From Candidatus Cloacimonadota bacterium (GTDB lineage Bacteria; Muiribacteriota; UBA6191): a DNA stretch of 64,000 nt. Positions 24,355 through 52,490 of the stretch are shown here, one piece after another. A program made the position numbers and the translations under genes. The notes below the pieces were generated by a model that did no database searches, was not told the DNA's origin, and saw only the letters and a list, made by a program, of their open reading frames with translations. The stretch spans positions 364,468-428,467 of the forward strand of contig JAGSHD010000001.1 in the NCBI GenBank assembly GCA_023954715.1, written 5' to 3'. Within the stretch, counting starts at the first letter, position 1. Every line of letters begins with the position of its first letter.

Positions 24355-26448
24355 ATGGAACATATTAATATGTACATTCAAGCTGCAGGTGCAGCAGGTA
24401 TATTAGCTTTGATTACAGCTTTTATTCTATCTGGACAAATCAAATCACAAAACGAAGGTAACGACAAAATGGTCGAACTTGCTGGATACATCCGTGAAGG
24501 TGCTAGAGCATTTATCGCTGCTGAATACAAAATCCTAGTTATTTTTGTTTTAGTTTTAACTGCTGTTTTATGGATGGCTATTGGTAAAGCTACTGGTATT
24601 TCTTTTATCGTAGGTGCTGCTTGTTCAATGCTTGCTGGTAAGTTCGGAATGGAAACAGCTACTGCTTCTAATGCAAGAACTGCTTGGGCTGCTAAAGAAT
24701 CTGGTTTAACTCAATCTCTAATGATCGCTTTTAAAGGTGGATCTGTAATGGGTCTTTGTGTTTCTGGATTAGGTTTAATTGGTTTTTCTGCTCTTTTATA
24801 TACATTACATAACTTCATTCCTGCTGAAATCACTGGAGCTGCAAAAATTACTGCTGTACTTTCTGCTATTTCTGGTTTTGGTTTAGGAGCTTCATCTATC
24901 GCATTATTTGCTCGTGTTGGTGGAGGTATCTTTACTAAAGCTGCTGACGTTGGTGCTGATTTAGTTGGAAAAGTTGAAGCTGGAATCCCTGAAGATGATG
25001 CTAGAAACCCTGCAGTTATTGCTGATAACGTTGGTGACAACGTAGGTGATGTTGCTGGAATGGGTGCTGATTTATTTGAATCTTATGTAGGTTCAATCAT
25101 CGCTGCTTGTACTCTTGGATTTGTAGCATTAGGTGCTAAAGGTATCGTTTTACCATTAGTAATCGTAGCTATTGGAGTTGTTTCTTCAATCATCGGAATG
25201 CAATTTGTTTCTGCTAAAGACGAATCAAAAATTCACCAAGCTCTTGAATTTGGTGTAATGGTTGCTTCTGCTTTAACTATCGCTGGTGTTTATTGGGCAT
25301 GTAACAAGTTTGTTGGAGCTGATTTTGCTGCTGCAAATGCTACTTTACCTTACTTTGCTGCTGGTTACACTGGAATGGGAATCTTCAAAGCTGTAGTTGC
25401 TGGTTTAGTAGCTGGTGTTTTGATTGGTAAGATCACTGAATACTATACTGGTACAGATCACAAGCCTGTTCATGAAATCGCAAAGTCTACAATTACTGGA
25501 CCTGCTACTGTTATTATCTCTGGATTAGCTGTAGGTATGGAGTCTGTTGTAGTACCAATCGGTTTAATCTCTGGTGCAATCTTTGTTTCTTTTAAGTATG
25601 CTGGAATGTACGGAATCGCTATGTCTGCTGTTGGAATGCTTGCAACTACTGCTATTACTGTAGCAATCGATGCTTATGGTCCTATCGCTGATAACGCTGG
25701 TGGAATTGCTGAAATGGCTGAACTTCCTCCTGAAGTTCGTGAAATCACTGATAAGTTGGATGCTGTTGGAAATACAACTGCTGCTATCGGAAAAGGTTTT
25801 GCTATTGGTTCTGCTGCTTTAACTTCTTTATCTTTGTTTGCTGCTTTTGCTGCTGCAACTAAAATCGAAGCAATTAACATTATTGATCCTACAGTTGTAA
25901 TCGGATTATTCATTGGTGGAATCTTACCATTCTTCTTTTCTGCACAAACTATGAAAGCTGTTGGACGATCTGCTGAAGATATGATCCAAGAAGTTAGACG
26001 ACAGTTTAGAGAAGACAAAGGAATCATGGCTGGAACATCTAAGCCAGATTATACTCGATGTGTAACTATCTCTACTGAGTCTTCATTAAGAGAAATGATG
26101 TTACCTGGTGTTGTTGCTGTTGTAGTACCTGTTATCGTTGGAAAATTCGTTGGTGTTACTGCTCTTGGTGGGATGCTTGCTGGTACTCTTGTAACAGGTG
26201 TTTGTTTAGCTATCATGATGTCAAACGCTGGTGGTGCTTGGGATAATGCTAAAAAGTTAATCGAAACTGGTGACTTTAAAGATGCTAACGGAGAAATCAT
26301 CACTAAAGGTACAGAAGCTCACAGTGCTGCTGTTACTGGTGATACTGTTGGAGATCCTTTTAAAGATACATCTGGTCCTTCTATCAATATCTTTATCAAA
26401 TTAGTATCAATCGTGTCACTTGTATGTGCACCATTGTTCATCGGATAA
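24355..26448 (+). CDS. hppA: Membrane-bound proton/sodium-translocating pyrophosphatase, K+-dependent type
   Basis: 697 aa with about 16 TM segments. PPase signature blocks [20 protein letters not shown] and [18 protein letters not shown] are present. Ala, not Lys, in GNTTAA marks the K+-dependent subfamily. Codon usage is strongly biased. Confidence 0.9.
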
Positions 26449-26471: not shown

Positions 26472-26510
26472 AGCCCACACTGAAAATTTCAGTGTGGGCT
26501 ATTTTTTTTT
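26472..26510 (+). terminator. Rho-independent terminator of hppA
   Basis: Perfect 13-bp hairpin AGCCCACACTGAA-aat-TTCAGTGTGGGCT followed by a T9 run. Confidence 0.85.
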
Positions 26511-26576: not shown

Positions 26577-27506
26577 GTGGACAATCCAAATCTTCAAGAC
26601 ACATTCAGCCCTACTGTGAACGACACAACCGAACTAACTGAAGTTGAAGATCTAAAGATATATCATCCAATATCCATCAGTAAATTTATTATCCTAAACT
26701 TAGTAACATTTGGTCTATATTCTATAGTTTGGGCTTATAGGTGCTGGCAAAACTTACCAGACCCCGAAGATAAAGTCAGACCATTTTGGAGAGCACTTTT
26801 TTCACATTTGTTTTACTTCGCTCTATATAAGCGAATTTATAAGGGGAAGCACCAAGGTCTAGGAGCTATAATTTTTGTTTGTTATTTGGTTTCTACCATG
26901 TCTTACAAACTCCCAGAACCCTATGATATAGTTAGTCTATTTTCATTTTTATTTCTTATTCCTATTTTGTCTGAAGTAAATCGACAAAATCTAAAGCAAA
27001 CAATTACGCAAAACTCTTCTTACTCTTTTAAACATTTTTTTACCATTATCATAGGTGGTGGACTTTTATTTTTATATGTATGTTCACTATTTCTATTTGC
27101 TCCAAGTACTCAGGTAATCAAAGGGTCAAGACTTGACTCGAATCAACTCTCATTTTTACATACCAACAACTTTTTACTCAAAGGAGATAAGGTTCACTAC
27201 TTTTATACTGACGCAATTTTCTCCATCCAAGAAGAAGGAAACTTTTTTACAGATAAAACAGTTGTTTCTTATATTGAAAGCGAAACTCCTGGTGAGTATT
27301 TATCCAATGTTATTCCATATCAAGAGATAACAGACTTAAGCTTTGAGAGCTCTGATAACTTTATTGAAAATAGTATAATTAAAGTCTCACTACAAGATGA
27401 TACGTTTTTTGAAATTGGAATCTCTAATGAGCTTGGTTTAGACAAAACTTACTTTAACAAACTCCAATCGCTATGGACTAATCACACTCATTCACGAAAA
27501 CAATAA
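26577..27506 (+). CDS. Hypothetical polytopic membrane protein
   Basis: 309 aa with a GTG start and several hydrophobic helices. The C-terminal soluble part has no motif. Confidence 0.5.
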   Translation: MDNPNLQDTFSPTVNDTTELTEVEDLKIYHPISISKFIILNLVTFGLYSIVWAYRCWQNLPDPEDKVRPFWRALFSHLFYFALYKRIYKGKHQGLGAIIFVCYLVSTMSYKLPEPYDIVSLFSFLFLIPILSEVNRQNLKQTITQNSSYSFKHFFTIIIGGGLLFLYVCSLFLFAPSTQVIKGSRLDSNQLSFLHTNNFLLKGDKVHYFYTDAIFSIQEEGNFFTDKTVVSYIESETPGEYLSNVIPYQEITDLSFESSDNFIENSIIKVSLQDDTFFEIGISNELGLDKTYFNKLQSLWTNHTHSRKQ

Positions 27507-27953: not shown

Positions 27954-28901
27954 ATGGATTATATCTCAAGCTTAGGTATTTTGGCTCTTGGACATAGATT
28001 GAAGATTATCTCTGATAACATCTTAGAGGATACCTCACAATTTTACAAAGATTCAAAAATAAAATTTCGATCAAATTGGTTTCCGTTGTTTACTTTACTC
28101 TTAAAAGAGGAGTCCATTTCGGTTGGTAAAGCTGCCATTTTGTTAAACCAAAGCCATGTCTTTATTTCTCAAACTTCTAAACAAATGATTCAATCTGGTT
28201 TACTCAAAAAAGTAAAATCTAAAAAAGACAGTCGTATTTCTAATTTAAAACTAAGTGAAGAAGGATTAGAGGTTGCACGACAACTAACTCCTGTTTGGCA
28301 AGACATTCACTCTGGGCTATTAGATATTTCTGGCTTTTCTGGAATAGACCTTGAGCAAGTTATATCTCAACTCGAAATCACCCTAAAAGATAATGATCTT
28401 CTTTCTCAAATTCAAATATCCAAAGAGAGGCGTATTTCAGAGGAAATTGAGGTTTTTGAGTATAATAGGTCATATCATAGTGATTTTTACAAAATTAGCC
28501 ACTTATGGATGTCAAAATTATTTGGTGTGAGTCCCCAAGAGCAAAAACTTTTAGAAAATCCTAAAAAATATGTTTTAGATCTTGGTGGTAAAATTTTACT
28601 CGCACGATATAAAAACGAGATCGTTGCAAGCTCTAGTATTGTCCGACTAAGTTACAATCGATATCAATTAACCAAGATTGGTGTCTTAGAAGACTTTAGA
28701 GGACTAAAAATCGGTAAAAAGCTTTTAGCCAAAACAATTGAAAAATGTAAACACTTAGGAGCAAAATCCATTTATCTCCAAACAAGCCAAAAGTGTCCTG
28801 TTGCCACTTCTATGTTTAGAAACTTTGGTTTTACAACAATAAAGCAAACCCTAAGTGATGATCAAGACTATGAGATATCCTTAGAGTTAGATATAAAATA
28901 A
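27954..28901 (+). CDS. MarR-type HTH / GNAT N-acetyltransferase fusion protein
   Basis: 315 aa. The N-terminal winged-helix-like region precedes a C-terminal GNAT motif A, RGLKIGKKLLAKTIEKCKHLGAKSIYLQT. Confidence 0.58.
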   Translation: MDYISSLGILALGHRLKIISDNILEDTSQFYKDSKIKFRSNWFPLFTLLLKEESISVGKAAILLNQSHVFISQTSKQMIQSGLLKKVKSKKDSRISNLKLSEEGLEVARQLTPVWQDIHSGLLDISGFSGIDLEQVISQLEITLKDNDLLSQIQISKERRISEEIEVFEYNRSYHSDFYKISHLWMSKLFGVSPQEQKLLENPKKYVLDLGGKILLARYKNEIVASSSIVRLSYNRYQLTKIGVLEDFRGLKIGKKLLAKTIEKCKHLGAKSIYLQTSQKCPVATSMFRNFGFTTIKQTLSDDQDYEISLELDIK

Positions 28902-29094
28902 TATGGATAGCCTTAGTTAGTACGTCTTTTTCATCAATATAGGCTGTGTAAATAATGCGACTTAGATTGGTAGATTTACCATTAGTTTCACAGGCACGAA
29001 GAAGAGAAATCTAAAGGCATTGTTTAGTTATTTTGCTATCACAACCTCAATCACTAACAGACTAAAAAGTTAAGTTTGTAAGTGACAAAAACAC

Positions 29095-29125
29095 AAAAAA
29101 GCTCCACAAACTGCGGAGCTTTTTT
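29095..29125. terminator. Bidirectional intrinsic terminator between convergent genes
   Basis: AAAAAAGCTCC-acaaactgc-GGAGCTTTTTT, flanked by an A-run and a T-run. Confidence 0.7.
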
Positions 29126-29144
29126 ATCGACTTATCTTAAAGAT

Positions 29145-31538
29145 TTATTCTACTGAGCCATCTTCGTTAGATTGCATTAAATCCATACTCATAACATCCA
29201 ATGGATTTACAGCAGTATCTATTGGGTTACTGGAGTTTTGATCTGACTGCTGTACACAACTCATTAAAGGTGAAGGACATGGAGACTCACTAGTACTTGC
29301 TGAACTGCTAACATTTTGACTAGCCTCTTGTGTACTATCTTCACTTGTGTTTTCTGATTTAGGTATAACTAAATAACTTTTATCTTTTTTAACATAAGCT
29401 TTTTTATCTGGATCATAATGGTAACTTCCTTTTCCGTCACGAAATGCTAAATCAGTATTGCTGACTAAGGCACGAATCATCCACTTGTCTTTGTCATCAT
29501 CTCTTTTGGTCATAACTGTTCCGTTAGACAAAATTCGAAAATTACTACCTTTTAAGCTTCGTAACTCTCCATCTTTAAAATTGAAGGTTGGGTCAGATTG
29601 TATAATTTGAACATCTAGTCCACCTACTTTTTTAATGCTTCCTACCATGACTAATCGATTATTAGAAACAACATCGTAAACGCCTCTTTTACCATAAACA
29701 TCGATAATATCGTAACGAGCGTGAGCTTCATCATCAAATACATCTCCAGTTTTTTCACTTTCTGTTTTAAACCACCAGAAATCACGTTTTTCGTAAAAGG
29801 ATACAGACTCTAAATGATCGACCATGTACATACGCTGTAAACTTTGTTTAGCGTACTTTTTTCGTTTCATCATGTCTCTTGCTCTAGCTTCTGCCATTTC
29901 TTCTAATTTATCTTCATTATGTTTACTAGAAATAGTTGGCATTTTTTTCATCATGTTTAATAGTCGTTTGATTAAGCTTGAGTTTTTCCAGTTTTGAACT
30001 GTCTCAGTGTACATAATTGCTTTAACACCAGCGTAAGCTGCATAACCAACTGCTGCTGCAACAAGTACTGCTGGTAAAGAAACACCCATCAAAGCAATGG
30101 CCACAGCTCCACCAACAGATCCAGCAATTTTAGCTTCTTTGTTATCTGCGTAATCATCCATTACATCTAAAAAAGCAAATTTTCGATCTTGCCAATAACC
30201 CTTATTATCATTTTGTCCGCTAGTACGTTGTGTTCGGTATTGAAAAGACTCCTTGCCGATTTGAACTTCGTCTTTACGTTGTCCTACTGCTAATACGATT
30301 GCAGACTCAACCAATGCCTCAGCTAATATTCCAAAAGCTGTACCAGTCACTGTATGCTTTACTAATGCGCCCAAACCAGCACCAGTCAAAGCATCTTTTG
30401 CATGATGCGCAACATGATGTGTGATTTCACTTCTAGAAACCCACTTCAAGGCTTGTGCAAAACCATGTCTTAATTTACTAATCTTTAACAAGTTTTTACC
30501 TGTTTCACCAGCACGCTTTACAGTTGATCCTAGTCTACCAAACTTACCTTTGTATGAACTGTGAGGTGCAGACTCTGCTGCATCTTCTAGTGCACCCATA
30601 GTGATTTCTTCAAGGATAACAGTAGACATTTTTATCCCGGCTTTTTTACCATAGTATGATCCGTGGTAACCAAGTTTTTCAAGAATTGTTTTACTGCCTT
30701 TACTTTTTGGATTATGCAAAGCAATACCAAGCATTTGTAAGAAGGTTGCATCAGCCATCAATATCTTTTTAAAATTAGAATACTTACCATTAAATAAAAT
30801 AGAGTGGTTGGCATCTTTTACATTAGATAGGTTACACGCTTCTTTGCCATTCGCATCGTAGTAAGGACTAAAAGCCATGATATTTTTTTCAAAAGTAGTT
30901 TTATCTACTCCTCTAGCTGGACGACTATATACTCTCGCGTTATACATAGCTGCAATAAAAGAAATCGCACCGATGTTTCCAGCACCAAGACCATCCACAT
31001 TGTCGATCTTCATCATTCGCTGTAATGCGTTTCCGTCATCTTTTCGCTCTTCCCACCAGTTACTACCACCTAAATAGTCTTTATGTAATAAAACCATTCC
31101 AAAAAACATCTGCATAGTATGGTCATAACCTACAGACTTAACTTTTTGCATTAACTCTGTTTTTTGAGCACTTGAAAGGCGATTAAAAATCTTGGCTCCC
31201 ATTCGAAGGTTAAACTCAGCTTGTACGCCACCACTTTGTTTTTGTAAATTAAATGCCGAGCTCACTTCTTTTAAGTAAGCCTCAGCCAAAACTTTAGCTC
31301 CACGATAAGCTAAAAAGTTTAAAGACATATTATAATCATTTTCGATCATGTCTTCTAACTCTTTTTGTGATTGCTTTGCTAATCTACTAGACTCTTTTTG
31401 ACCTTGAATAATAGCTTCTAGACGGTCAGGATCAATGGATCCAACCTCTTCGCCAGCAAAAGACAAAGCCGGAAAAACTACTGAAAAAAGATAAAAGATA
31501 GTGAAAATTAGGACGGTGCTTCGTTTCAGAAAAAACAT
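29145..31538 (-). CDS. Large hypothetical secreted/membrane-associated protein (797 aa)
   Basis: Signal peptide MFFLKRSTVLIFTIFYLFSVVFPALSFA. An internal Gly/Ala-rich hydrophobic segment is present. The C-terminus is Ser/acidic-rich with several Cys. No catalytic motif recognised. Confidence 0.55.
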   Translation of the reverse strand: MFFLKRSTVLIFTIFYLFSVVFPALSFAGEEVGSIDPDRLEAIIQGQKESSRLAKQSQKELEDMIENDYNMSLNFLAYRGAKVLAEAYLKEVSSAFNLQKQSGGVQAEFNLRMGAKIFNRLSSAQKTELMQKVKSVGYDHTMQMFFGMVLLHKDYLGGSNWWEERKDDGNALQRMMKIDNVDGLGAGNIGAISFIAAMYNARVYSRPARGVDKTTFEKNIMAFSPYYDANGKEACNLSNVKDANHSILFNGKYSNFKKILMADATFLQMLGIALHNPKSKGSKTILEKLGYHGSYYGKKAGIKMSTVILEEITMGALEDAAESAPHSSYKGKFGRLGSTVKRAGETGKNLLKISKLRHGFAQALKWVSRSEITHHVAHHAKDALTGAGLGALVKHTVTGTAFGILAEALVESAIVLAVGQRKDEVQIGKESFQYRTQRTSGQNDNKGYWQDRKFAFLDVMDDYADNKEAKIAGSVGGAVAIALMGVSLPAVLVAAAVGYAAYAGVKAIMYTETVQNWKNSSLIKRLLNMMKKMPTISSKHNEDKLEEMAEARARDMMKRKKYAKQSLQRMYMVDHLESVSFYEKRDFWWFKTESEKTGDVFDDEAHARYDIIDVYGKRGVYDVVSNNRLVMVGSIKKVGGLDVQIIQSDPTFNFKDGELRSLKGSNFRILSNGTVMTKRDDDKDKWMIRALVSNTDLAFRDGKGSYHYDPDKKAYVKKDKSYLVIPKSENTSEDSTQEASQNVSSSASTSESPCPSPLMSCVQQSDQNSSNPIDTAVNPLDVMSMDLMQSNEDGSVE

Positions 31539-31733
31539 AAAAAACCTTTATATATAGAGTCTTTAATACAAAAATAGGGTAAACCCTTACAGTTACTACG
31601 ATTTTTTAAGTAAAATGTTTCTATTTTTATAAATTAATAACTTCTTGAGGATAATAAGCTCAGTATATTGGTTTTTACAATTAGCCAAAGTACATTTTAA
31701 TCTTTACACCTTAGCCTTAAACAAAATAAAACT

Positions 31734-32342
31734 TCATTGTTTCCATTTACGCATTCTGTGGATAACTTGCTGCCTTGAAAGCCCAAGTAGTTTACCCGCT
31801 TTTGTTTGATTATTATTACATCGCTCAAGAGCTTGAGCTAAAAGATCATTTAAAAGCTCTTCCACATTTAAGCCATTCTTTGGCAACACAAAAGATTGCT
31901 CCGTAAAATCACTGTTTTTTATAGACGCCTCTAACACATTGGTCTTTTGCAAAAGTAATTGTCTTAGCTTTTTATTTTCGCTACGTAAGTCCCAATCGCT
32001 TTTTGCTAGATCTATTGTTCGGAGTAGCTTTGCTGCTTCAAATGGTTTAGTCAGGTAGTCAAATGCACTTAGTTTGGTAGCTTTGACAATTGATTTTACA
32101 TCATCATAAGCTGTCAAAACAACAATTGGACAAGGCATATTTCCATCCAAACTCTCCAATACTTGTAGACCATTTAACTTTGGCATATTTAAGTCTAAAA
32201 CACATACATCAAAATCGTTTGAAATCTCATCCAAACAAGCTTTACCATCAAATACTACTGTAACTTGATGATCATTACTCTCCAATTGTATCTGAAGAAC
32301 TCTAGACAAAGACTGATCATCATCAGCGATTAAAATACGCAT
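31734..32342 (-). CDS. Response regulator, REC domain plus Fis-type HTH
   Basis: 202 aa. REC features are ILIADDD, CVLDLNMP and TAYDD. The C-terminal segment LLGLSRQQVIHRMRKWK matches HTH_8. Confidence 0.75.
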   Translation of the reverse strand: MRILIADDDQSLSRVLQIQLESNDHQVTVVFDGKACLDEISNDFDVCVLDLNMPKLNGLQVLESLDGNMPCPIVVLTAYDDVKSIVKATKLSAFDYLTKPFEAAKLLRTIDLAKSDWDLRSENKKLRQLLLQKTNVLEASIKNSDFTEQSFVLPKNGLNVEELLNDLLAQALERCNNNQTKAGKLLGLSRQQVIHRMRKWKQ

Positions 32343-32352
32343 AATTATCTCT

Positions 32353-33462
32353 TTATAGGCTTACTTTATGTTTGCCACCATCACTAAATTCAAACTCTTT
32401 TGGAAAACTCATTTCAAAGCAAGTTGGCTCACTTGTATTTTTCAAGATCAACACTCCACCTAACTGACTCATTAATTCAGAAGATATAGCTAATCCTAAT
32501 CCATTTCCATCTTGTTTACTAGTGTAAAAGAAATCAAAAATGACATCTTTATTTTTATTTTCAACTCCAATACCATCATCTAAAACTTCAATACAATATT
32601 GATTATTTAAACTAGATAAATCAACTTTCACAAATCTATTTGCAGCATCTATAGCATTTAAGATCAAGTTTAGTAATACCTGTTGAACCATATTACTAGG
32701 GCCATTGTATATCATATTTTTTTCTGAAAAGAATAGTTCAATTTTTATATTTTTATTTTTACATTGAACTTGAAGTAATTTAATCAAATCAGAACAAAGA
32801 TCAACTAAATTTATCTGAGTAAAGTCTACTTTTTCATCTCGACTTAAACGTAAAAAGGTATCTAAGATCTTTTTAATTCTAGAGATTTCTTTTGATGCGA
32901 TCTCAACTAGCTCTTCTTGGTGATCTAATTTTGTTTCATCTTTTAATATTATATCCAAAATTCCTTTTAAAGATGCCAAGGGGTTTCTTATTTCGTGAGA
33001 AATACCGGCCCCTAAGAGTCCTATAGCATGAATTTTTTCATTTTTCTTTAGGGTATCTTGGGCTGTCATCAGAGTCTCTGTCTGTACTCTTAGGCTATTG
33101 TTACTTTGATTTAACTCTTTGATTAGCTTTTTTTGATAAGATGAATAAGCCCCAGTTATAACTGCAATCACAAAATACAAAACAAGCTCTAAACTCTTGT
33201 CCGTATTTTTTACAAAATAATCTGCTCCCCAGTCAAAGTGTAAATGAGGAAAATACAATACAGCACAACTAAACGCGGCCAACAATGCCCCTTTTAACCC
33301 AAAGCGAAATGCCCCTAACAAAATGGGTAAATAATAGAGTTTTCGATATACAGCATGCAATGGAGTATGATGTGTATGAGTACCATAATGTAGTGAAGTG
33401 GTAAACAAAATCATGGCTGCAATAGCCACTATCCAAACTCTATTTGTATTAAATTTTTGCAT
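32353..33462 (-). CDS. Sensor histidine kinase (membrane)
   Basis: 369 aa. The N-terminal TM helices precede the H-box HEIRNPLASLKG, and the N/G1/G2 boxes (NLILNAIDA, DDGIGV, GNGLGL). Confidence 0.8.
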   Translation of the reverse strand: MQKFNTNRVWIVAIAAMILFTTSLHYGTHTHHTPLHAVYRKLYYLPILLGAFRFGLKGALLAAFSCAVLYFPHLHFDWGADYFVKNTDKSLELVLYFVIAVITGAYSSYQKKLIKELNQSNNSLRVQTETLMTAQDTLKKNEKIHAIGLLGAGISHEIRNPLASLKGILDIILKDETKLDHQEELVEIASKEISRIKKILDTFLRLSRDEKVDFTQINLVDLCSDLIKLLQVQCKNKNIKIELFFSEKNMIYNGPSNMVQQVLLNLILNAIDAANRFVKVDLSSLNNQYCIEVLDDGIGVENKNKDVIFDFFYTSKQDGNGLGLAISSELMSQLGGVLILKNTSEPTCFEMSFPKEFEFSDGGKHKVSL

Positions 33463-33648
33463 CTAAACCTTTAATCAATTAATGTTCAGTCCTTAAAAAG
33501 TGTCTTTAATATTCTAGTAGATTATACGACAACTCCTACTCCTACCACCACTCGATTTTATCGTTTTTCTGAGTTTTTGGCTATTTGATTACACAATATT
33601 AAGTCAATCAATGGATTCATATAATCCCATACTAAAAGTATTTTTCAA

Positions 33649-34002
33649 TTGTTTACTAAGCTTTCAATTGATAAGATTAAAAATATTGAACCCACTAGAG
33701 ATAAAATGATTTCAAATAAAAACCATCTACTAAGTATAATAGTCACACTTGTCTTTGCAATTTTTTATTGCTTCTATTTAAGTTTGTGGTTTTTATACAC
33801 AGACTCATATACCAGTGAAGCAAATATTCATGCACTATATAATCCACTACTCTCTTCACTTAAAATTTTTGAAGCCAATGGACTGGGTTATTTCACTTAT
33901 TGTTTAAGTGTATTTTATGACTTAAGCTTTTACCCGTCTGCTAGTATAATCTTCCCGATATATATATATATATATATTAAATCTAGCTCCATTTTTCATT
34001 GA
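33649..34002 (+). pseudogene. 5' portion of a polytopic membrane-protein gene, interrupted at an (AT)10 tract
   Basis: The frame-1 ORF (117 aa, hydrophobic) runs through the AT tract and stops at 34000-34002. The +1 frame is open from 33950 to 35743. See the findings. Confidence 0.45.
33958..33977. repeat. (AT)10 dinucleotide microsatellite inside a coding region
   Basis: atatatatatatatatatat at 33958-33977, read as IYIYIYI in both relevant frames. Confidence 0.9.
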
Positions 34003-34102
34003 TTATCCTTGGCTAATCAATGTTGCTTTAAGCTTATTTTTAGTTGTCATTCCACTTATTGTATTTTACGATTCTCCAAAAAGAGTATTTGTATTTTTAT
34101 TA

Positions 34103-35743
34103 TTGATATTCTCTTTTCCACTTACACAAATTGCTTTAAAAGGTTTTTCTATCCACGCGTGGGTTATTGTATTACTCACATTGGCTATTTTTACTTACGA
34201 TAAATACAAAAGTAAAAAAAGCACTCTGTATTTAGTACTTTTTATCTTTTTTGGAATTTTAAGCTGTTCTTTAAAACACTTAGGAGTAATCTATTTTACG
34301 GTGTTTTTATATGTACAATTAGTTGATAATTATTTACATAACAAAAATCAACGGCTTTTACTCTTTTCAAGCTTTTTCATTTTGAGTATAAGTGCTTTAT
34401 TTTATCCAATTTCTGAAACTGTGAATTATGTGGAGTTTATATTCAGACTCACACCAAAATATACAATTACTAATTTGCTTCTTTTAATGATAGTTTTACT
34501 TTCTATCTCTCTATTATTTTTTAAGAAAGTCAAATTAAACTCTCCTAGAAGTAAAGATTTCATAGAGTCACCAATTTTTGTAATGAGTTTTTTTACCTTG
34601 ATTGTAACAGTAATAATTATCGCTCTTGAGTTTAGAGTTAACCCTGTAGCCTTTTATATCAGTCTAAGTATATTTACTTATTTTAACAGTTCACTTATCT
34701 ACTGCTCTATTGATCAAGACTTACAATGGATATTATTACTAGTGTGTTCACTACAAACGGCTTTGTTTTTGTATTTGTTTGCACCTTTTACCGAATTCTT
34801 TCTACTACCTGTCTTCATCTTATTTTATTTATTATCTAAAGGACTAAAGTCCAAAATCTTTATAGCTTTTTTAATAATCATTAATTTGTTCGTTAGTAAC
34901 TGTTTCATGGCTAAAAAAGATTTAACCATTAAATTATTTTTCTATAGTTATACTTGGCAACCCCTCACATGGAAAAAAACAAAAATGTCATCTCTCCAAA
35001 ATGCTATAAAGAGACAACTTAGATATAGATTGCCTAACAACGAAATTATGTTTGGATTCATTTCGAATTTATATTTTTCAACTAAAATGGAGTTTAACTG
35101 GAACCCCTACTATAGCTTTATTGAATTACCTGATTCCTATGAAGATTTATTAATTATGAATGATGATAAAATGACAGCTGGATTTAAAAAACTAGTTGAA
35201 TCTGGAGATTTATCAATTTTTATTGATGTACTCAAATCTTGGGACGAATATGTTGATATTGATTCCGTTCTTAAAAAAGCTAGGAATAATATTAAAGAGG
35301 CGTATACACCTAATTATATCTCCCGACATCAAAATCTATCGCAAAAGTTTACTGCTTTTTTAGATAGTAATCCACATTACCAAAACTATTACGACATTAT
35401 TTTACTACCTAGTTTAGACCCTATAGTTAAATTGTATATTCATAAAAAAAATAAGAACTATAAAATGGGAATTGAAGAAAGAAGCATTCAAAGAGCAGCT
35501 ATTATAGCTTTATTTACCAAAACATTTCAAAGTCTTAGCTTAGATGTTGAAAAGGATCAAAACAACTTGATAGAAGCGTTTCATTTATACAAAGCTAATG
35601 ATTATTTACAAGCCTATTTACATTTATTAAAAATTGACCCCAACATATTAAAACGGGAAGTTCATACAAAATTTTTGAAGATTTTATGGGTTCAACTGAA
35701 TAATAACGAAAGAGACAGACTTATAAATATTAGTAGCAAATAG
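34103..35743 (+). CDS. Polytopic membrane protein (about 12 TM plus a C-terminal soluble domain), 3' portion of the split gene
   Basis: 546-aa ORF from a TTG start. The frame is actually open upstream to 33950 and overlaps the AT tract. The gene is very AT-rich, with a Wzy/GT-C-like architecture; that is architectural inference only. Confidence 0.55.
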   Translation: MIFSFPLTQIALKGFSIHAWVIVLLTLAIFTYDKYKSKKSTLYLVLFIFFGILSCSLKHLGVIYFTVFLYVQLVDNYLHNKNQRLLLFSSFFILSISALFYPISETVNYVEFIFRLTPKYTITNLLLLMIVLLSISLLFFKKVKLNSPRSKDFIESPIFVMSFFTLIVTVIIIALEFRVNPVAFYISLSIFTYFNSSLIYCSIDQDLQWILLLVCSLQTALFLYLFAPFTEFFLLPVFILFYLLSKGLKSKIFIAFLIIINLFVSNCFMAKKDLTIKLFFYSYTWQPLTWKKTKMSSLQNAIKRQLRYRLPNNEIMFGFISNLYFSTKMEFNWNPYYSFIELPDSYEDLLIMNDDKMTAGFKKLVESGDLSIFIDVLKSWDEYVDIDSVLKKARNNIKEAYTPNYISRHQNLSQKFTAFLDSNPHYQNYYDIILLPSLDPIVKLYIHKKNKNYKMGIEERSIQRAAIIALFTKTFQSLSLDVEKDQNNLIEAFHLYKANDYLQAYLHLLKIDPNILKREVHTKFLKILWVQLNNNERDRLINISSK

Positions 35744-35954
35744 ACAAGCTAACTGTTTCTTTAGTCGACTATATTATCCTACTCATTTCTTCACAATCAA
35801 TCTTTTTAAAAGTAAAAACTGTTGAAATTTCAACTATATTGTTTGAAAATATACATTCCATAACCTTATATGTTCCGTTTAGCTCCCCTTTGTAGATGTA
35901 ACCGTTATAAGATAATATTTATGTAGTTTAACAAAATTTACAAAAAGGTTCATT

Positions 35955-36476
35955 ATGATAAAGATACTTCTTTTTATTCTCTCTACAAGCATTTCTATGG
36001 CTTCTGGTTCTCACATCCATACAAACATTGTGCAAAATAAAGTTCCTCAAATATATAATCAATATAAACTAAAAAATAAAGTCAAAAAACCAGCAAGTGC
36101 TGTATACCTATGTACTTGTGGCGATCAAGTTTGGAAACAAGATGCTGGAAAAATTAAAGCCTGTCCTTATTGTGGACCTGCCATGCCGAATTGCGGCTTG
36201 CTTGTAAAGGTACTGCCTAAGCGTGGTGAAAAGTATGATTGGAGTGACTATGATCTGCCCAACAAAATTTGTCCAATTAGCAACGAAGAAATAAAAAACT
36301 CTAAACATCAAGTGAAACTAGATGATAAAGCTATATTTGTTTGTTGTAAAAAATGTGTTACTAAGTTTAAGAGAGCTATTACAAAAGGTAAAGCTCATAA
36401 AAAACTGCGTAAACTCCCTCTAAAGCCTGAAAAGTTCGGTTTTATACTAAAAACTCCTAGCGAACATCAACATTAA
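35955..36476 (+). CDS. Secreted Cys-rich putative metal-binding protein (YHS-like domain)
   Basis: 173 aa with a signal peptide. A CTCGDQVW...ACPYCGPAM motif is followed by CPISNEEI...KAIFVCCKKCVTKF, which matches the YHS-domain Cys pattern. Confidence 0.5.
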   Translation: MIKILLFILSTSISMASGSHIHTNIVQNKVPQIYNQYKLKNKVKKPASAVYLCTCGDQVWKQDAGKIKACPYCGPAMPNCGLLVKVLPKRGEKYDWSDYDLPNKICPISNEEIKNSKHQVKLDDKAIFVCCKKCVTKFKRAITKGKAHKKLRKLPLKPEKFGFILKTPSEHQH

Positions 36477-36479
36477 ATT

Positions 36480-37706
36480 ATGAAACTTTTGATACTTCTA
36501 TTTTGTATAGTAAACTCTTTGATCTATGGTGATACAATTACACTTTCTTTTCTCAAAGAACAATTAATAAAAAATCATATTTCATTACAATCTGCTTCTT
36601 TACAGCTTGAGTCCGCTAAACATACGGCAAAGTCAGAAGGGTTTTTGCCCAATCCCATGCTTAAGTTTGGGCTCTTTCCTAAGGCGATTTCTACTAAAAA
36701 TGGGGATCTAAAATCTAAAGTTTCTATTAGTCAAAAACTTCCACCTAAATCACAACGACTCTCTAAAAAACGACTAGCCAATAATGCTGTTGATATCCAA
36801 AAACTTATTGTACAAAAGACTCTTCAAGATCTGCTTCTTGAACTTGAACTACAATTTTTTGAATATAAGTTTCACTTAGATAAAAAGTCTCTTTTAACAG
36901 ATAATCTTAGCTTAATCAATTCGTGGGAAAAGCTATGGGAAACTCATTACTCCCATCACAATTTTCAATATCAGCGCTTGATTCAGTTGCAACTAGATGC
37001 TCGTGAAGTTCAAGATCAAATACGAAGTATCGATGAACAAACTCCTATTTTGTTTGAGCAATTACAACAGTTAGCATGGATAAAGAGCAGTAAACCAAAA
37101 AAATTAACTTTTAAAAAAGAAGTTAGGGATGACCATTTCAACTTAGATTTGTCTAAAAATTTACAGATTCAAATGATTCAAGCACAAGCAGATGTAAAAC
37201 AATCACAAATGAAATTTGAACAATCATTTTATAAACCTAATTTTACACTAGCTAGCGAGTGGAACCAAATCGATGCTAACTCCAATAATCCAAATCAGGG
37301 AGACGATGCTTGGATGATCAGTCTTGGCGTAGATTTAGTTTTGAACAAAAGACAAGTTCAAAACAAAGTTCAATCTAAAAAACTAGCCTTTATGGCCCTT
37401 CAAAAAGCCAAACTTTATAAATCCAGACAAATTCAAATCGAGTGGAAAAAACTTATCTTTCAGTTAAATGACTCCAGAGCTCGCTATAGACTTATAAAAG
37501 ATGATTTGATTCCTAGAACTAGAGAAGCCCTAGACTCAATTCAAACTAATTATTTAACTCAAAGTAAAGGCATAGACTTTTTTTCATTGCTGAGTCATCT
37601 TAGAAAACTACTTAGTTTAAGTCTTCAAATGCAAAATCAATATAAGATCTACTTTCAATCCAAAGCAAAGATTAAACATCTCCAAAACAATGAGGTCGAC
37701 TTATGA
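36480..37706 (+). CDS. Outer-membrane efflux protein (TolC/CusC-like)
   Basis: 408 aa with a signal peptide and a coiled-coil-rich outer-membrane-factor-like sequence. It lies in an operon with the MFP and RND genes. Confidence 0.55.
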   Translation: MKLLILLFCIVNSLIYGDTITLSFLKEQLIKNHISLQSASLQLESAKHTAKSEGFLPNPMLKFGLFPKAISTKNGDLKSKVSISQKLPPKSQRLSKKRLANNAVDIQKLIVQKTLQDLLLELELQFFEYKFHLDKKSLLTDNLSLINSWEKLWETHYSHHNFQYQRLIQLQLDAREVQDQIRSIDEQTPILFEQLQQLAWIKSSKPKKLTFKKEVRDDHFNLDLSKNLQIQMIQAQADVKQSQMKFEQSFYKPNFTLASEWNQIDANSNNPNQGDDAWMISLGVDLVLNKRQVQNKVQSKKLAFMALQKAKLYKSRQIQIEWKKLIFQLNDSRARYRLIKDDLIPRTREALDSIQTNYLTQSKGIDFFSLLSHLRKLLSLSLQMQNQYKIYFQSKAKIKHLQNNEVDL

Positions 37707-39466
37707 AAAATATGTGGCTATTTTTAATTTTGGCAACAAGTCTCTATGCTAGTCAAACTCATAAAACTATAAAGGCAAATCAATCTAGTGATGTAAAACA
37801 TACAAATAAAACCTCTGATAAAGCTGTTTTTACTTGTAGTATGCATCCACAAATCCGAGCACCTCAACAAGGCAAGTGCCCTATTTGTTTTATGGATCTA
37901 ATCTCTTTAGATACAACAAATGTACTCCCTTCAGATACTATAGAGCTTAACAAGCAACAACAAAAAAACGCCAATATTTTAACATATCCTGTCCAATTTA
38001 AGCATGATCAAAAAAATCTAAATCTGTATGGCAAAGTGAAGTTGATTCCATCTAATATTTATCGTATAACAGCATGGGCTGGTGGTAGAGTTGATAAGCT
38101 ATTTGTTAACTCTATAGGACAAAAAGTAAAAAAAGGAGACCCTCTTTATCAGATTTACTCTCCAGCCTTGATCTCATCCCAACAAGAGTTAATCTCGGCT
38201 TTAAACTTGTTAAAAAACTCTAAAAAATCAAGTAGCCGATTTTTATCACTGACTACAAACCTCAAAGCCATCCGTCAAAAACTACTTTATTTAGGATTAA
38301 CCAAAAAAGACTTACAAAAAATTGAAAACAAAAATGCTCCTGCTCCACTAATAACAGTACATGCCCAACGTAGTGGAGTGGTCAAAGATGTGACAATCAA
38401 TGAAGGAGAATATGTTAAAGAAGGCGCACCTATTTTATTAATAGCTAATATGGATACACTTTGGGTAGAAGCATCGGTATATGAGGATGATATACAAACT
38501 TTACATGGTCCAATACAATCTTTAATTATCTTAGACTCTCATCCAAAAGAAGAGATTTTAGCTCAGTTTGTCAGAATTGATCCTTTTGTAAACTCCAATA
38601 CTCGATCTAGTAGAGCCATTTTTTCAATTTCAAATACGACTGGTCAATACCACGAAGGATCATTTGCTAGAGTTCAAGTGGAGTCTCATTCAAAAAAAGG
38701 GCTCTTAATTCCTCATTCATCTGCACTTTTTACGGGACAAAAAGCTGTTGTGTTCGTCAAAAATAAAAACCATTTTAAGTCGGTATTTGTTCGAGTTTTA
38801 GAAAAAACTCAATCTTATTATAGAGTTTTGGGAGATCTTAAAGAAGGAGATCAGGTCGTTGCACAAGGCACATTTAAAATTGATAGTGAGTTTCAAATTC
38901 AAGCAAAAGACTCAATGATGAGCTCTAAAGAGTTATTATCACCTTATGGCAGTAGAATCGACTTTAGAAAGCCCATTGATAAAGCGCAAGACTGGTTAAA
39001 ATTGAAAAAACCAAGTATTGACTTAAAGCAAAAGTTTGATCATATCTTAGACTCTTATATAGAGCTACATCTGAGTTTATCTGAGGACTCATTTGATGAA
39101 TCAAAAGAAATCATTGCTGAACTATCTCAAAGTTTGTTTAATATAGATCAATCCACATTAAATAGCCATGAGATACAAGTATTAAAACTAATAAATTCCT
39201 CACTAAAAAAAACTTTGACCCTAGCTAGCTCCACCAAACTATTTAAGGATCTACGAGGTGCTTTTTCACTGCTATCTCAATGGATGATAGCTTTGACTGA
39301 AAACCATTGGATTAGCCAAAATCCTGATTTAAAAAAAGTGTATTGTCCCATGGCTTTTGATAATCAAGGAGCCTATTGGGTTCAGGATGAAGACGAAGTA
39401 TTAAACCCTTATTTTGGATCCAAAATGCTAAAATGTGGCACAATCAAAGATTGGAACTTACAGTGA
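37703..39466 (+). CDS. Heavy-metal efflux RND adaptor (CusB/CzcB-like membrane fusion protein)
   Basis: 587 aa. The N-terminal heavy-metal-binding domain reads FTCSMHPQIRAPQQGKCPICFMDL. The barrel-sandwich/beta-barrel MFP core is followed by a long C-terminal extension. Confidence 0.7.
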   Translation: MKNMWLFLILATSLYASQTHKTIKANQSSDVKHTNKTSDKAVFTCSMHPQIRAPQQGKCPICFMDLISLDTTNVLPSDTIELNKQQQKNANILTYPVQFKHDQKNLNLYGKVKLIPSNIYRITAWAGGRVDKLFVNSIGQKVKKGDPLYQIYSPALISSQQELISALNLLKNSKKSSSRFLSLTTNLKAIRQKLLYLGLTKKDLQKIENKNAPAPLITVHAQRSGVVKDVTINEGEYVKEGAPILLIANMDTLWVEASVYEDDIQTLHGPIQSLIILDSHPKEEILAQFVRIDPFVNSNTRSSRAIFSISNTTGQYHEGSFARVQVESHSKKGLLIPHSSALFTGQKAVVFVKNKNHFKSVFVRVLEKTQSYYRVLGDLKEGDQVVAQGTFKIDSEFQIQAKDSMMSSKELLSPYGSRIDFRKPIDKAQDWLKLKKPSIDLKQKFDHILDSYIELHLSLSEDSFDESKEIIAELSQSLFNIDQSTLNSHEIQVLKLINSSLKKTLTLASSTKLFKDLRGAFSLLSQWMIALTENHWISQNPDLKKVYCPMAFDNQGAYWVQDEDEVLNPYFGSKMLKCGTIKDWNLQ

Positions 39467-42400
39467 AAAACCTGCAAAGTTATCTGATCTGTCACCCTCT
39501 CATCACCTTGGCTATTTTACTTTCGATTTTACTCACTGGTCTCTTTGTTTCTCCTTTTGAAAGTTCTTTTTTACCTTCAGACCTTCGAATGCCTATTGCT
39601 GTAGATGCTATTCCTGATTTGGGAGAAAACCAGCAAATTGTGTTTACTTCTTGGATGGGTAGAAGTCCCCAAGACATAGAAGATCAAATTTCTTATCCAT
39701 TATCTACCCAATTGATGGGTCTACCTGGGGTTAAAAGCATCCGAACCTTTAGTTTTTTAGGCTTTTCAACGATCTATGTGATTTTCAATGAAGATGTAGA
39801 ATTTTATTGGTCAAGATCAAGAATTATTGAAAAGTTAAACTCATTACCCAATGGCTTGTTACCTTCTGGGGTACAAGCAACTCTAGGCCCTGATGCAACT
39901 CCACTAGGTCAAATATATCTTTACATGCTTCAAGCATTTGATCAAGACGGAAACAGAGTCCCACAAGCATTTAACCTTGAAGAAAAACGTACTATTCAAG
40001 ACTTTCAAGCAAAACCCTTACTTCAATCCATTTCTGGTGTGAGTGAAGTAGCGTCCATTGGTGGTTTTGTAAAAGAGTATCAAGTTCAATTAGACCCACA
40101 AAAATTGGCGTTTTACAAAATATCATTATTAGACGTAGCAAAGTCTATAAAAACATCAAATTTAGATATTGGTGCTAAAACCATGGAGTACAATAAAGTT
40201 GAGTACTTGATTCGAGGACTAGGCTTTGTTAAAGACCAAAAAGACATTGAAAATACAGTAGTAAAAACAGATGCCGGCACCCCCCTACTTATTAAACACC
40301 TTGGGCATGTACAGTTAGTACCTGGTTTTCGTAGAGGTATTTTAGATGATGCCGGAGAAGAAGCCGTTGGGGGTATAGTAGTCGCTCGCTATGGTGAAAA
40401 CCCCATGAAAGTATTAGCAGATATCCGCTCCCATTTAAAAAAAGTTAACGATTCCTTTCCTAGTAAAACTTTAAAAAATGGTAAAAAGGTAAAACTTAAA
40501 ATTGTACCCTACTATGATCGTACAAATGTCATCCAAGAAACCATAGCTACCCTATGGCACGCTTTAACAGATGAAATGATCATAGCTTCTTTAGTTATAT
40601 TAGCTTTTTTGTTTCATACAGGAAGCTCTTTTCTATTGGCAATCATCTTACCTTTTGGCATATTGCTCACATTTATTGGTATGAAAATAATAGGGATTGA
40701 AGCCAATGTAGTAGCTTTATCCGGCATAGCTATTGCCATTGGAGTTATGGGTGACATGGGAATCGTACTCGTAGAAAATACTCAAAAAATGTTAGAAGAA
40801 AACCCCGATGAAAAATCTAGCCTGATAATTTTAAAAGCAGTGTCCCAAGTAAATATGCCAATCTTAATCGCTGCTTCTACTACGATTATTAGTTTTTTAC
40901 CTGTATTTTTTTTAACAGGTGCAGAAGGAAAACTGTTTCGTCCCTTAGCCTATACTAAAACCCTAGCCATATTATCTGCCGTCTTGATTTCGCTATTTTT
41001 ATTGCCACCTTTAAGTCGTTACCTACAGGCACTAAAATTAAAAAAAATAAATAAATTTTTGGCAATACCAATCTTTGTTTTATGTCTTTGTACGATCACA
41101 TATACCTGGTCTCCATTAGGTAATCAATCAGGCTATTTCTTCAATTTATTTTTTGTAAGCTTAGTCATTTTATCTTTGCTAATCTCTTTTTCAATATTAA
41201 AAATATATTATCTGTCTATTTTAAAAAAATGCTTAAACTACTCCAAGACTTTTTTATTCATACCCATAACTATAACTATGTTGGGGATGACTATCTGGCT
41301 TGGTGTACAAAACGTTTTTTTCTTTTTACCTGACTCCATCTTAAGCTCTACTTTATTTATGTCTTATAGCAAAAAGTTTCCTGGTCTTGGAAGCGAGTTT
41401 ATGCCTAAGTTAAAAGAGGGATCATTTTTGTATATGCCTACTTCTATGCCTCACGCTAGCGGAGAAGAAATGACAGAGGTCCTTTCTATTTTAGATCAAA
41501 AAATAGCATCTGTCCCAGAAGTAGAGTGGGCCGTTGGAAAAGCAGGACGTGCAGCTAGTGCCTTAGATCCAGCTCCCATGTCTATGATCGAAACAATTAT
41601 TCAATATCACTCTGAGTTTAAACTAGACAAAGATGGTAATCAGGCTCTTTTTTCTTTTGATTCTAAGTCGAATCAATTTATTAGAGATCAAAACAATTTA
41701 CTTATTAACGACTCAAATGGAAAACCCTATCGTAACTGGAGAAAACACATAAAAACTCCTCAAGATATATGGGATGAAATCATCAAAGTTTCGCAAATCC
41801 CTGGTACTACTTCTGCTCCTTTTTTACAACCAATCGAAGCTCGTCTTGTTATGTTACAAAGTGGTATGAGAGCTCCCATGGGGATAAAAATCATAGGAGA
41901 TGATTTGCAAACAATGGAGCAGTTTGGCTTGTATCTTGAAAAGACACTCAAAGAGGTAACTGGTGTTAAATCAAGTGCTGTATTTTCAGATCGTATCGTC
42001 GGAAAACCATACTTAGAAGTTGATTGGAATAGAGAAGAACTCGCAAGATATGGAATTTCTATTTTAGAAGCTCAAAGACATCTTGAGTGGGGAGTTGGTG
42101 GCGGGAAAATATCTGAAGTAATTGATGGTAGAAATCGTTTTGCATTAAGTCTTCGCTTTTTAAAAGACTATCGAGATAGTCCAGAAGATCTTGAAAAATT
42201 ACTAATCTCTCCTAGTGGAGGTCATACTGCTATACCCTTATCTTTACTGGCAAAAGTACACTATCGAAAAGGCCCCCAAGCGATTAAAGGAGAAGACTCT
42301 AAACTTGTAAGTTATGTTTTGTTCGACAAAGATAATAATTTTTCTGAAGGAGAAGTTATCCAGTCAATACAAGAGCATTTCAGACAAAAACAAAAATCAG

Positions 42401-43071
42401 GAGAGTTTTTATTGCCACCTGGTACTTTTTATAAATTTGCTGGTAGCTACCAAAATCAACTGCGAGCCAACAAACGACTTGCTTTCATCATCCCTCTAGC
42501 TCTCATTATAATTTTTTTTATCATCAGTCTACAGTTTAACTCAATTGTCGTAACTGGGTTCATTTTTTCAGCCGTGTTACAAGCTTGGAGTGGAGGCTTT
42601 ATATTAATCTGGTTGTATAACCAAGACTGGTTTTTTAACTTTGCTTTGTTTGGTTATCACTTTCGAGAAATTTTTCAAGTTAATACCATCTACATTAGTG
42701 TTGCTGTTTGGGTTGGATTTTTAGCCTTATTTGGTATCGCCACTGACGATGGTGTACTAATGAGCTCCTTTATATCCCAAGAGCTAAAAAACAAAGTCCC
42801 AAAATCCAAGGAAGATTTAAAACAGACTATTTTAGCTGCAGCACAAAAGAGAGTTAGAGCATGTCTAATGACCTCTGCCACAACAATTTTAGCTCTATTA
42901 CCTATTCTTACAAACCATGGTCGAGGTTCAGAGATTATGATACCCATGGCTGTACCTATCTTTGGTGGCATGTGTGTAGCCTTATTGTCCTTATTTCTCA
43001 CTCCTGTTTTGTTTTATTTATATCACAGTTTTACAAGTAACTTTGACAAAAACTCACTTAATGATGAGTAA
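39433..43071 (+). CDS. Heavy-metal efflux RND transporter (CusA/CzcA family)
   Basis: 1212 aa with 12 TM segments, two large periplasmic loops and HME-RND conserved blocks. The alternative GTG start at 39463 would overlap the CusB-like stop as GTGA. Confidence 0.85.
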   Translation: MWHNQRLELTVKNLQSYLICHPLITLAILLSILLTGLFVSPFESSFLPSDLRMPIAVDAIPDLGENQQIVFTSWMGRSPQDIEDQISYPLSTQLMGLPGVKSIRTFSFLGFSTIYVIFNEDVEFYWSRSRIIEKLNSLPNGLLPSGVQATLGPDATPLGQIYLYMLQAFDQDGNRVPQAFNLEEKRTIQDFQAKPLLQSISGVSEVASIGGFVKEYQVQLDPQKLAFYKISLLDVAKSIKTSNLDIGAKTMEYNKVEYLIRGLGFVKDQKDIENTVVKTDAGTPLLIKHLGHVQLVPGFRRGILDDAGEEAVGGIVVARYGENPMKVLADIRSHLKKVNDSFPSKTLKNGKKVKLKIVPYYDRTNVIQETIATLWHALTDEMIIASLVILAFLFHTGSSFLLAIILPFGILLTFIGMKIIGIEANVVALSGIAIAIGVMGDMGIVLVENTQKMLEENPDEKSSLIILKAVSQVNMPILIAASTTIISFLPVFFLTGAEGKLFRPLAYTKTLAILSAVLISLFLLPPLSRYLQALKLKKINKFLAIPIFVLCLCTITYTWSPLGNQSGYFFNLFFVSLVILSLLISFSILKIYYLSILKKCLNYSKTFLFIPITITMLGMTIWLGVQNVFFFLPDSILSSTLFMSYSKKFPGLGSEFMPKLKEGSFLYMPTSMPHASGEEMTEVLSILDQKIASVPEVEWAVGKAGRAASALDPAPMSMIETIIQYHSEFKLDKDGNQALFSFDSKSNQFIRDQNNLLINDSNGKPYRNWRKHIKTPQDIWDEIIKVSQIPGTTSAPFLQPIEARLVMLQSGMRAPMGIKIIGDDLQTMEQFGLYLEKTLKEVTGVKSSAVFSDRIVGKPYLEVDWNREELARYGISILEAQRHLEWGVGGGKISEVIDGRNRFALSLRFLKDYRDSPEDLEKLLISPSGGHTAIPLSLLAKVHYRKGPQAIKGEDSKLVSYVLFDKDNNFSEGEVIQSIQEHFRQKQKSGEFLLPPGTFYKFAGSYQNQLRANKRLAFIIPLALIIIFFIISLQFNSIVVTGFIFSAVLQAWSGGFILIWLYNQDWFFNFALFGYHFREIFQVNTIYISVAVWVGFLALFGIATDDGVLMSSFISQELKNKVPKSKEDLKQTILAAAQKRVRACLMTSATTILALLPILTNHGRGSEIMIPMAVPIFGGMCVALLSLFLTPVLFYLYHSFTSNFDKNSLNDE

Positions 43072-52263: not shown

Positions 52264-52490
52264 GTAACTATTCAGCTATAATTTTTCAATTTGTTCACAA
52301 AGGTTGATAACATCTAAGTTTTTGATCATTGTTATATTTTGTATTTTAAGCTTTTGAAGTGTAGTGAACTACTCGAAAAAAGCTTTTAATGTAAAAGATG
52401 ATGATGAGCTAAACCGCATCAATAAAGTAAAAAATGTGAGAAACTTGTATGCTCCTCTCCTTTTATCGAAGAGGACACCTGAATAATTAC
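52264..52490 (+). mobile_element. MITE-like element, copy C (227 bp)
   Basis: TIRs GTAACTATTCAG / CTGAATAATTAC. No TSD. The 3' TIR provides the TAA stop (52487-52489, minus strand) of the adjacent 384-aa ORF. Confidence 0.85.

Follow-up and report, generated by a model that had tools for sequence, protein, structure and literature searches.

A translated (AT)10 tract that throws a GT-C-fold membrane-protein gene out of frame in an uncultured bacterium: a candidate phase-variation switch

When a perfect microsatellite lies exactly where a gene loses its reading frame, is the gene switched off reversibly, or has it simply been broken? The question is raised by a perfect (AT)10 tract in a 64,000-nucleotide stretch of DNA, here called the window, from Candidatus Cloacimonadota bacterium (GTDB lineage Muiribacteriota; UBA6191), corresponding to positions 364,468 to 428,467 of contig JAGSHD010000001.1 in GenBank assembly GCA_023954715.1. 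A preliminary description, made from the letters and their open reading frames (ORFs), had proposed that this tract splits a large polytopic membrane-protein gene and that changes in its length might rejoin the halves, with a pseudogene or an assembly error as alternatives. Here we show that positions 33706-35743 constitute one gene, whose ~677-679-amino-acid product has a GT-C fold and would be an inner-membrane protein with a periplasmic C-terminal domain ending in a TPR-like repeat, and we weigh the explanations for its present, interrupted state.

One gene divided by an (AT)10 tract

The microsatellite, ATATATATATATATATATAT, was found at 33958-33977 as described (no strand assigned), flanked by CCCG on its 5' side and TAAATC on its 3' side, and marks the site of the frame change; Tandem Repeats Finder reports 10.0 perfect copies of period 2. 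No other dinucleotide run of at least five units exists in the 64-kb window, where AT runs number 464 of two units, 31 of three, five of four and one of ten. Only 7e-7 occurrences of (AT)10 would be expected in the window (33.2% GC) under a first-order Markov model; the tract therefore owes its existence to repeat expansion and not to base composition. The dinucleotide threshold used in a published survey of simple sequence repeats (SSRs) is five units (PMC2651432); (AT)10 is thus a perfect repeat above threshold length inside an ORF.

Both reading frames that had been reported around the tract are real. The upstream ORF (33649-34002), which may start at TTG 33649 or ATG 33706, reads the tract as IYIYIYI and reaches a TGA (34000-34002) after seven more codons, its out-of-frame tail in the present (OFF) allele being KSSSIFH followed by that stop (33978-34002, plus strand). 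The +1 frame is open from 33950 and, with the tract read as YIYIYI, extends uninterrupted to TAG 35741-35743: its 597 codons contain no stop, as against 52 and 62 in the other two frames across the same stretch. Its first start codon is TTG 34103, which gives the 546-amino-acid ORF originally listed.

Homologue alignments that span the junction establish that both ORFs belong to a single large polytopic membrane-protein gene, of which they are the two halves, divided precisely where the tract lies. With the downstream frame as query, phmmer was run exhaustively against 1.84 billion representatives and returned 48 relatives at E ≤ 1e-3 (~25% identity, lengths of 600-1200 amino acids). In nearly all full-length matches the alignment begins at query residue 5-13 and at homologue residue 70-126, so that the homologues must carry some 80 extra residues at the N-terminus. 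The upstream ORF aligns by BLASTP with residues 3-78 of an intact homologue, P0002 (E = 3e-10), and by phmmer the downstream frame resumes at residue 80 of the same protein, so that the junction coincides exactly with the tract. In multiple alignments, colinearity between the fused protein and 37 homologues continues through the junction, and tblastn with the fused protein yields single high-scoring segment pairs, in one frame and spanning the junction, in the homologue loci L003, L004 and L007-L009.

The 5' part of the gene (33706-33957, plus strand; position mod 3 = 1; residues 1-84) encodes the first transmembrane helix (TM1) and the first loop, as indicated by BLASTP, the alignments and the structure model considered below, and contains the family-conserved residues W28, D33, E38, Y45, P47, Y76 and P77; on this side of the junction the residues common to the fused protein and the family are W28, the acidic first-loop motif, Y45, P47 and Y76-P77. 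The remaining transmembrane helices and the C-terminal domain are encoded by the 3' part (33978-35743, plus strand; position mod 3 = 2), as indicated by phmmer, the absence of stops and the conserved columns. Here the family residues P102, P139, Q142, K146, K191-H192, G194, Y234 and W423 are kept, and the motifs comprise FPLTQIALK around P139/Q142/K146, KH-G at 191-194, Y234, SN at 398-399 and W423.

Switch or no switch, the existing gene calls misrepresent this gene of ~678 amino acids. The 546-amino-acid ORF (34103-35743, plus strand), a mechanical call shared by the Logan gene caller, has an artefactual start, because TTG 34103 is the first start codon possible and lies in the middle of a conserved transmembrane helix. 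The public annotation, a 252-amino-acid 'hypothetical protein' (KC646_01610, MCO4780992.1; 34985-35743, plus strand), comprises the C-terminal soluble domain only; this protein (P0001 in our set) is 100% identical to query residues 346-597 and is the only NCBI-accessioned piece of the downstream frame that was found. The upstream ORF, whether started at ATG or at TTG, is absent from the protein collection. Locus tags in the window run from KC646_01590 to KC646_01615, and the accession series implies a further product, KC646_01605, between a neighbouring histidine kinase and MCO4780992.1.

The tract-length arithmetic of the preliminary description required correction. When tract lengths of 6-14 units were simulated, a continuous ORF appeared at 8, 11 and 14 units only, and the remaining lengths truncated the product at 98-119 codons; loss of a single unit, which had been expected to fuse the ORFs, instead gives an (AT)9 allele that stops at codon 109. 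Fusion requires +2 nt (one unit gained), -4 nt (two units lost) or -1 nt, and the +1 shift in register that had been offered as a second route does fuse the frames. In simulation, gain and loss of repeats therefore switch the gene between a full-length and a truncated product. The fused protein, previously put at ~690 amino acids, measures 679 for (AT)11 and 677 for (AT)8 when read from ATG 33706, the probable start, supported by the homologue alignment. Compared with the 37 homologues, the (AT)11 product carries a two-residue IY insertion exactly at the tract; it follows that the (AT)8 product is gap-free against every homologue, and it would share its P-x-x-x-Y spacing with the nearest relatives.

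A GT-C fold outside the described families

The protein had been likened, in architecture, to surface-polysaccharide proteins of the Wzy and GT-C types. The GT-C half of that comparison was borne out at the level of the fold, and the other half was not: Wzy, and with it an O-antigen polymerase or ligase type, was rejected for want of any domain (Pfam) or fold support. The structure of the fused protein, whose prediction had been suggested as a check, was modelled with AlphaFold2 on a 38-sequence family alignment (mean predicted local distance difference test, pLDDT, 79.9; predicted template modelling score, pTM, 0.82). The top 15 Foldseek matches for this model are all GT-C; matches include STT3B, PimE, PglB (15.6), PIG-U/GAB1, GPI mannosyltransferase I and Pmt1/2, and further DPY19, AftA, AftD, ALG9, ALG6 and AftB (11.9). 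The predicted protein is thus a polytopic membrane module with a GT-C fold.

At the sequence level the kinship disappears. Identity to each of the solved GT-C enzymes is 7-13%, the fused protein has no match in Pfam or NCBIfam, and none of the GT-C Pfam models matches any of the 38 family members, which leaves them outside described GT-C families; the only Pfam matches among the 38 are TPR repeats, in the long C-terminal tails that many of them possess. On the evidence of the model, the gene product is a GT-C-fold, glycosyltransferase-like protein that belongs outside every described GT-C family. The family members (600-1200 amino acids) are nearly all metagenomic and, where named at all, are called 'hypothetical protein'. 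What has been uncovered is accordingly a GT-C-fold family that lacks a Pfam model and whose members are often TPR-tailed and often arranged as tandem paralogues.

In the AlphaFold2 model, TM1 is a helix of residues 5-32, and the first extracytoplasmic loop that follows contains short helices at 38-58 and 60-73. The tract, translated as (Ile-Tyr)n at residues 85-91, forms the beginning of TM2, directly after this loop. The C-terminal soluble domain, of ~270 amino acids, has a TPR-like repeat at its end, the TPR signal coming from a profile search of PDB sequences. After TM1 the family displays an acidic consensus, V-[DEQN]-P-F-P-[DE]-R-D (D/E in 30/38 members at one column, D in 23/38 at another), in place of which the query subgroup has an invariant T32-D33 and E38. 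In GT-C enzymes such as ArnT, PglB and PMT, the catalytic carboxylates are located in the extracytoplasmic loop that directly follows TM1. The upstream ORF encodes this presumptive catalytic loop, which the OFF allele would therefore detach from the remainder of the protein.

Reversible switch, null allele or artefact

We consider a reversible slippage (phase-variation) switch to be the most likely working model for this locus, and hold it with moderate confidence. In this model (AT)10, while encoding the (Ile-Tyr)n start of TM2, would throw the gene out of frame, severing TM1 and the acidic first loop (98 amino acids) from the remainder; as the downstream frame has no start before TTG 34103, no functional product would be expected from the OFF allele. 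A gain of one unit or a loss of two through slipped-strand mispairing would restore the full-length protein, with the IY insertion in the case of (AT)11 and at a length equal to that of all homologues in the case of (AT)8. The outcome would be stochastic, reversible ON/OFF switching of a surface-glycan-modifying enzyme, the OFF allele being the majority in the sampled population. Ten-unit perfect dinucleotide repeats are intrinsically prone to slipped-strand mispairing, the self-complementarity of the AT motif should add to the instability, and surface-glycan enzymes are the class most often switched by SSRs. The gene fits the bioinformatic definition of a contingency locus, since it is intact except in frame, lies one or two steps from an ON length and encodes a product of the surface-glycan-enzyme type. 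Length variation in the population, glycosylation of a surface molecule and maintenance of the switch by selection would all be parts of the model.

The only lesion of the gene is the frameshift, all invariant and nearly invariant family residues being retained, and its departures from conserved columns (5/27, 12/47 and 32/85 at three thresholds) do not exceed those of the intact homologues P0002-P0004. The gene is thus otherwise intact and under constraint, and since the frameshift stands by itself, with no decay elsewhere, the inactivation is either recent or reversible.

Several observations weigh against a switch that acts on a glycan-modifying enzyme. The alleles seen amount to one population consensus, of OFF length in both the metagenome-assembled genome (MAG) and Logan, and an exact look-up in a collection of 15 billion proteins found none of the ON products (5, 8, 11 or 14 units). 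IY repeats are absent from all 37 aligned homologues, so the tract is not family-wide; KC646_07590, the intact paralogue that this MAG carries at L010, is likewise without an SSR, and no further SSR of contingency length occurs within the 64 kb. To our knowledge, no SSR phase variation has been documented for uncultured environmental bacteria. As for enzymatic function, the family profile matched TPR proteins only among PDB sequences, leaving the membrane module unmatched, and it is from the predicted fold only that we infer such a function for the gene product.

Taken together, the lack of IY repeats in the homologues and of an SSR in the paralogue identify the tract as a lineage-specific expansion, and the idea of a family-wide switch was rejected. 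The tract would most simply have grown from an in-frame length of at most eight units, its present ten being two steps above eight and one below 11. The nearest homologue encodes G-I-Y-I-F-P with ATT TAT ATT, and with ATA codons such a sequence becomes an AT proto-repeat.

The search for other alleles and relatives covered several collections. Neither the GTDB representative genomes nor the JGI metagenomes contain a relative of the fused protein, JGI metagenomes contain no match to an exact DNA pattern that spans the tract and allows a gap of variable length, and no collection that was searched yielded a related strain or an ON allele. For the neighbour proteins examined, the 90%-identity clusters consist of the NCBI MAG and Logan entries for this organism and have no outside members; the lineage has been sampled once.

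The strongest competitor, which we regard as rather unlikely, is that the gene is a recent dead-end pseudogene, in which slippage turned an in-frame (AT)8 or (AT)11 into (AT)10 and drift or selection fixed the resulting null allele, with no maintained switching. That OFF is the only allele seen, in both assemblies, would be expected of such a gene, the intact paralogue in the same MAG may make it dispensable, and a lineage-specific tract in 64 kb devoid of other long SSRs also fits this reading. It is harder to reconcile a dead gene with the lack of a second lesion across 597 codons of a 33% GC gene, or with conservation equal to that of intact relatives; moreover, a repeat that is perfect, uninterrupted and ten units long is unstable, so that reversion is mechanistically expected. 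Pseudogene and switch differ mainly in whether that reversion matters biologically.

Improbable, in our estimate, is a sequencing or assembly artefact, whereby the true majority allele would be (AT)11 or (AT)8 and stutter or low coverage produced (AT)10. The source is a MAG, AT dinucleotide runs are prone to stutter in PCR-based libraries, and the lesion falls exactly at the repeat, one unit from an ON length. Stutter, however, normally affects a minority of reads and not the consensus, and the assembly has no general indel problem: no split genes occur in the rest of the window, and neighbouring genes show full-length domain matches (Obg 1-155/155, 4-alpha-glucanotransferase 1-457/465, ABC-F, the CusB-like adaptor and the RND pump). 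A Logan contig of run SRR13262723, built by a second assembler, is identical to window positions 28496-40623 at 12,128/12,128 bases, (AT)10 included, which argues against an assembler quirk; as it probably derives from the same reads as the NCBI MAG, the agreement of the two assemblers does not constitute independent data.

It is very doubtful that (AT)10 is read through by recoding, either by a -2 (= +1) ribosomal slip on AUA-UAU or by RNA-polymerase slippage adding an AU unit, which would yield the trans-frame peptide …FPIYIYIYILNLAPFF…. The change required from frame 1 to frame 2 is indeed -2 or +1, and a 2-nt shift on (AU)n restores identical codons, so that P-site tRNAs would re-pair perfectly two bases back; these are the only points in its favour. 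The homologues are all single-frame and without the repeat, no stimulatory structure was noticed, although none was looked for, and we are aware of no bacterium in which -2 frameshifting or transcriptional slippage by a dinucleotide has been described as a means of gene expression. A conserved programmed frameshift was rejected outright, neither the two-frame layout nor a slippery site being conserved in the homologues.

Natural fission into two genuine genes, a 98-amino-acid membrane peptide and a 546-amino-acid protein, has next to nothing to commend it beyond the separate ORFs output by gene callers, and is effectively refuted by the alignments, in which every homologue is fused, by the missing start codon (no ATG, GTG or TTG in the downstream frame between 33950 and 34103, with TTG 34103 itself inside the conserved helix bearing the F-P-x-x-Q-I-x-L-K motif) and by residues 86-136, fifty conserved family residues that would stay untranslated.

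What follows from the phase-variation model can be put only tentatively. The bacterium, uncultured, free-living and of anaerobe type, may possess here a contingency locus, in which a translated (AT)n stochastically switches a member of an undescribed GT-C-fold family and produces subpopulations with different surface glycans, which might, for instance, protect part of the population from phages; the ON alleles (8, 11 and 14 units) would then be distinguished by IY insertions where TM2 begins. If heterogeneity of the tract were confirmed, SSR phase variation of glycan-modifying enzymes would reach beyond host-adapted pathogens to an environmental lineage; the enzyme concerned would be an integral-membrane one with a GT-C fold, and the repeat a translated AT tract, a motif seldom found in coding switches. 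Should the gene prove to be a fresh pseudogene or the tract a stutter error, the locus would be ordinary.

Genomic setting and closest known systems

The gene lies between a divergent two-component pair and a Cus-like heavy-metal efflux operon. Judging from ORF layout and Pfam, the 243-bp intergenic region upstream of it (33463-33705, no strand assigned) is its presumed promoter region, and is shared with the divergent histidine kinase (32353-33462) and response regulator (31734-32342) on the minus strand; promoter-like matches in this region do not rise above the level of shuffled sequence. In the kinase the membrane part is weakly MASE1/DUF4118-like, and the response regulator, of 202 amino acids, combines a receiver with a Fis-type helix-turn-helix and is without an AAA+ domain. 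The Cus-like operon (35955-43071) starts with a Cys-rich protein of 173 amino acids, with CxxC-type motifs and without a Pfam match, followed by an OEP gene, a CusB-like adaptor (N-terminal heavy-metal-binding domain plus DUF3347) and a 1212-amino-acid RND pump, whose ORF as listed begins 34 nt before the adaptor ORF ends. A functional link of the gene to either flanking system was rejected, because the neighbourhoods of its homologues differ.

The homologues are found in arrays of two or three paralogues beside FGE-sulfatase-like and radical-SAM genes, or near RNase HII, PurE and ThyX. Head-to-tail arrays occur, in other MAGs, at L007 (1583-8364), L008 (41-7307), L009 (1523-8316) and L004 (6131-10238), that of L007 adjoining two FGE-sulfatase-like and two radical-SAM genes (one SPASM, one B12-binding). 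The window itself contains one copy of the family gene. The intact paralogue elsewhere in the MAG, KC646_07590 (MCO4782177.1; L010, 2981-5503; Logan SRR13262723_21110), is 805 amino acids long in NCBI and 840 in Logan, the NCBI start lying 35 residues later; since the NCBI protein, when aligned, is without TM1, that start is probably too far downstream.

Other features of the window were noted in passing. Rfam and tRNA scans of it were empty. The sole homopolymer of at least nine nucleotides is a T9 run at 26502-26510, between the ORFs 24355-26448 and 26577-27506. A 797-amino-acid ORF (29145-31538, minus strand) has a signal-peptide-like N-terminus, no Pfam match and a 90% cluster restricted to its own organism, and two long ORFs overlap on opposite strands (52449-52994, plus; 52487-53641, minus), one of them presumably spurious.

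Among known proteins, the GT-C enzymes (ArnT, PglB/AglB/STT3, PMT and TMTC, ALG3/9/12, PimE, AftA/B/D) may resemble the query in their acidic motif after TM1 and, like the query family, have a soluble extracytoplasmic C-terminal domain; TMTC proteins additionally possess TPR tails, as do many members of the query family. The 7-13% identity and the lack of a match to any Pfam or NCBIfam GT-C model set the query apart from them.

Glycan-building enzymes switched by intragenic repeats include the SSR-controlled glycosyltransferases of lipooligosaccharide and lipopolysaccharide, namely lgtA/C/D of Neisseria, lic2A/lgtC of Haemophilus influenzae and cgtA/wlaN of Campylobacter. The intragenic position of the repeat is shared with our candidate, and the enzyme class would be. 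These, however, are soluble or peripheral GT-A/GT-B enzymes of host-adapted pathogens, with homopolymer or tetranucleotide repeats, whereas the query is a polytopic GT-C-fold protein of an uncultured environmental bacterium.

With regard to the repeat itself, the same motif at a similar length, (TA)9-11, forms the classic phase-variation switch of the H. influenzae hifA/hifB promoter, according to the account of van Ham 1993 given in PMC2651432. The hif tract lies in a promoter and alters the spacing between the -35 and -10 elements, whereas the tract described here is translated and would act by frameshift. A long coding dinucleotide tract that truncates a gene in the sequenced allele, as here, is the (AG)12 of M.MmyCI, a Type III methyltransferase gene of Mycoplasma mycoides (PMC3498834); its product is a cytoplasmic DNA methyltransferase of the phasevarion type, that of the present gene a membrane glycosyltransferase-like protein.

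The other close counterpart is oipA of Helicobacter pylori, in which the number of units in a (CT)n repeat of the 5' coding region sets an in-frame ON or an out-of-frame OFF state (PMC10564699). Switching of oipA is documented across strains and clinical isolates, whereas the query is known from one tract length alone; the repeats are CT in one and AT in the other, placed respectively in the signal-peptide region of an outer-membrane protein and in TM2 of an inner-membrane protein. What oipA (as well as hopZ and sabA) has in common with the gene described here is a coding dinucleotide repeat near the 5' end and a product that acts, or in our case would act, at the cell surface.

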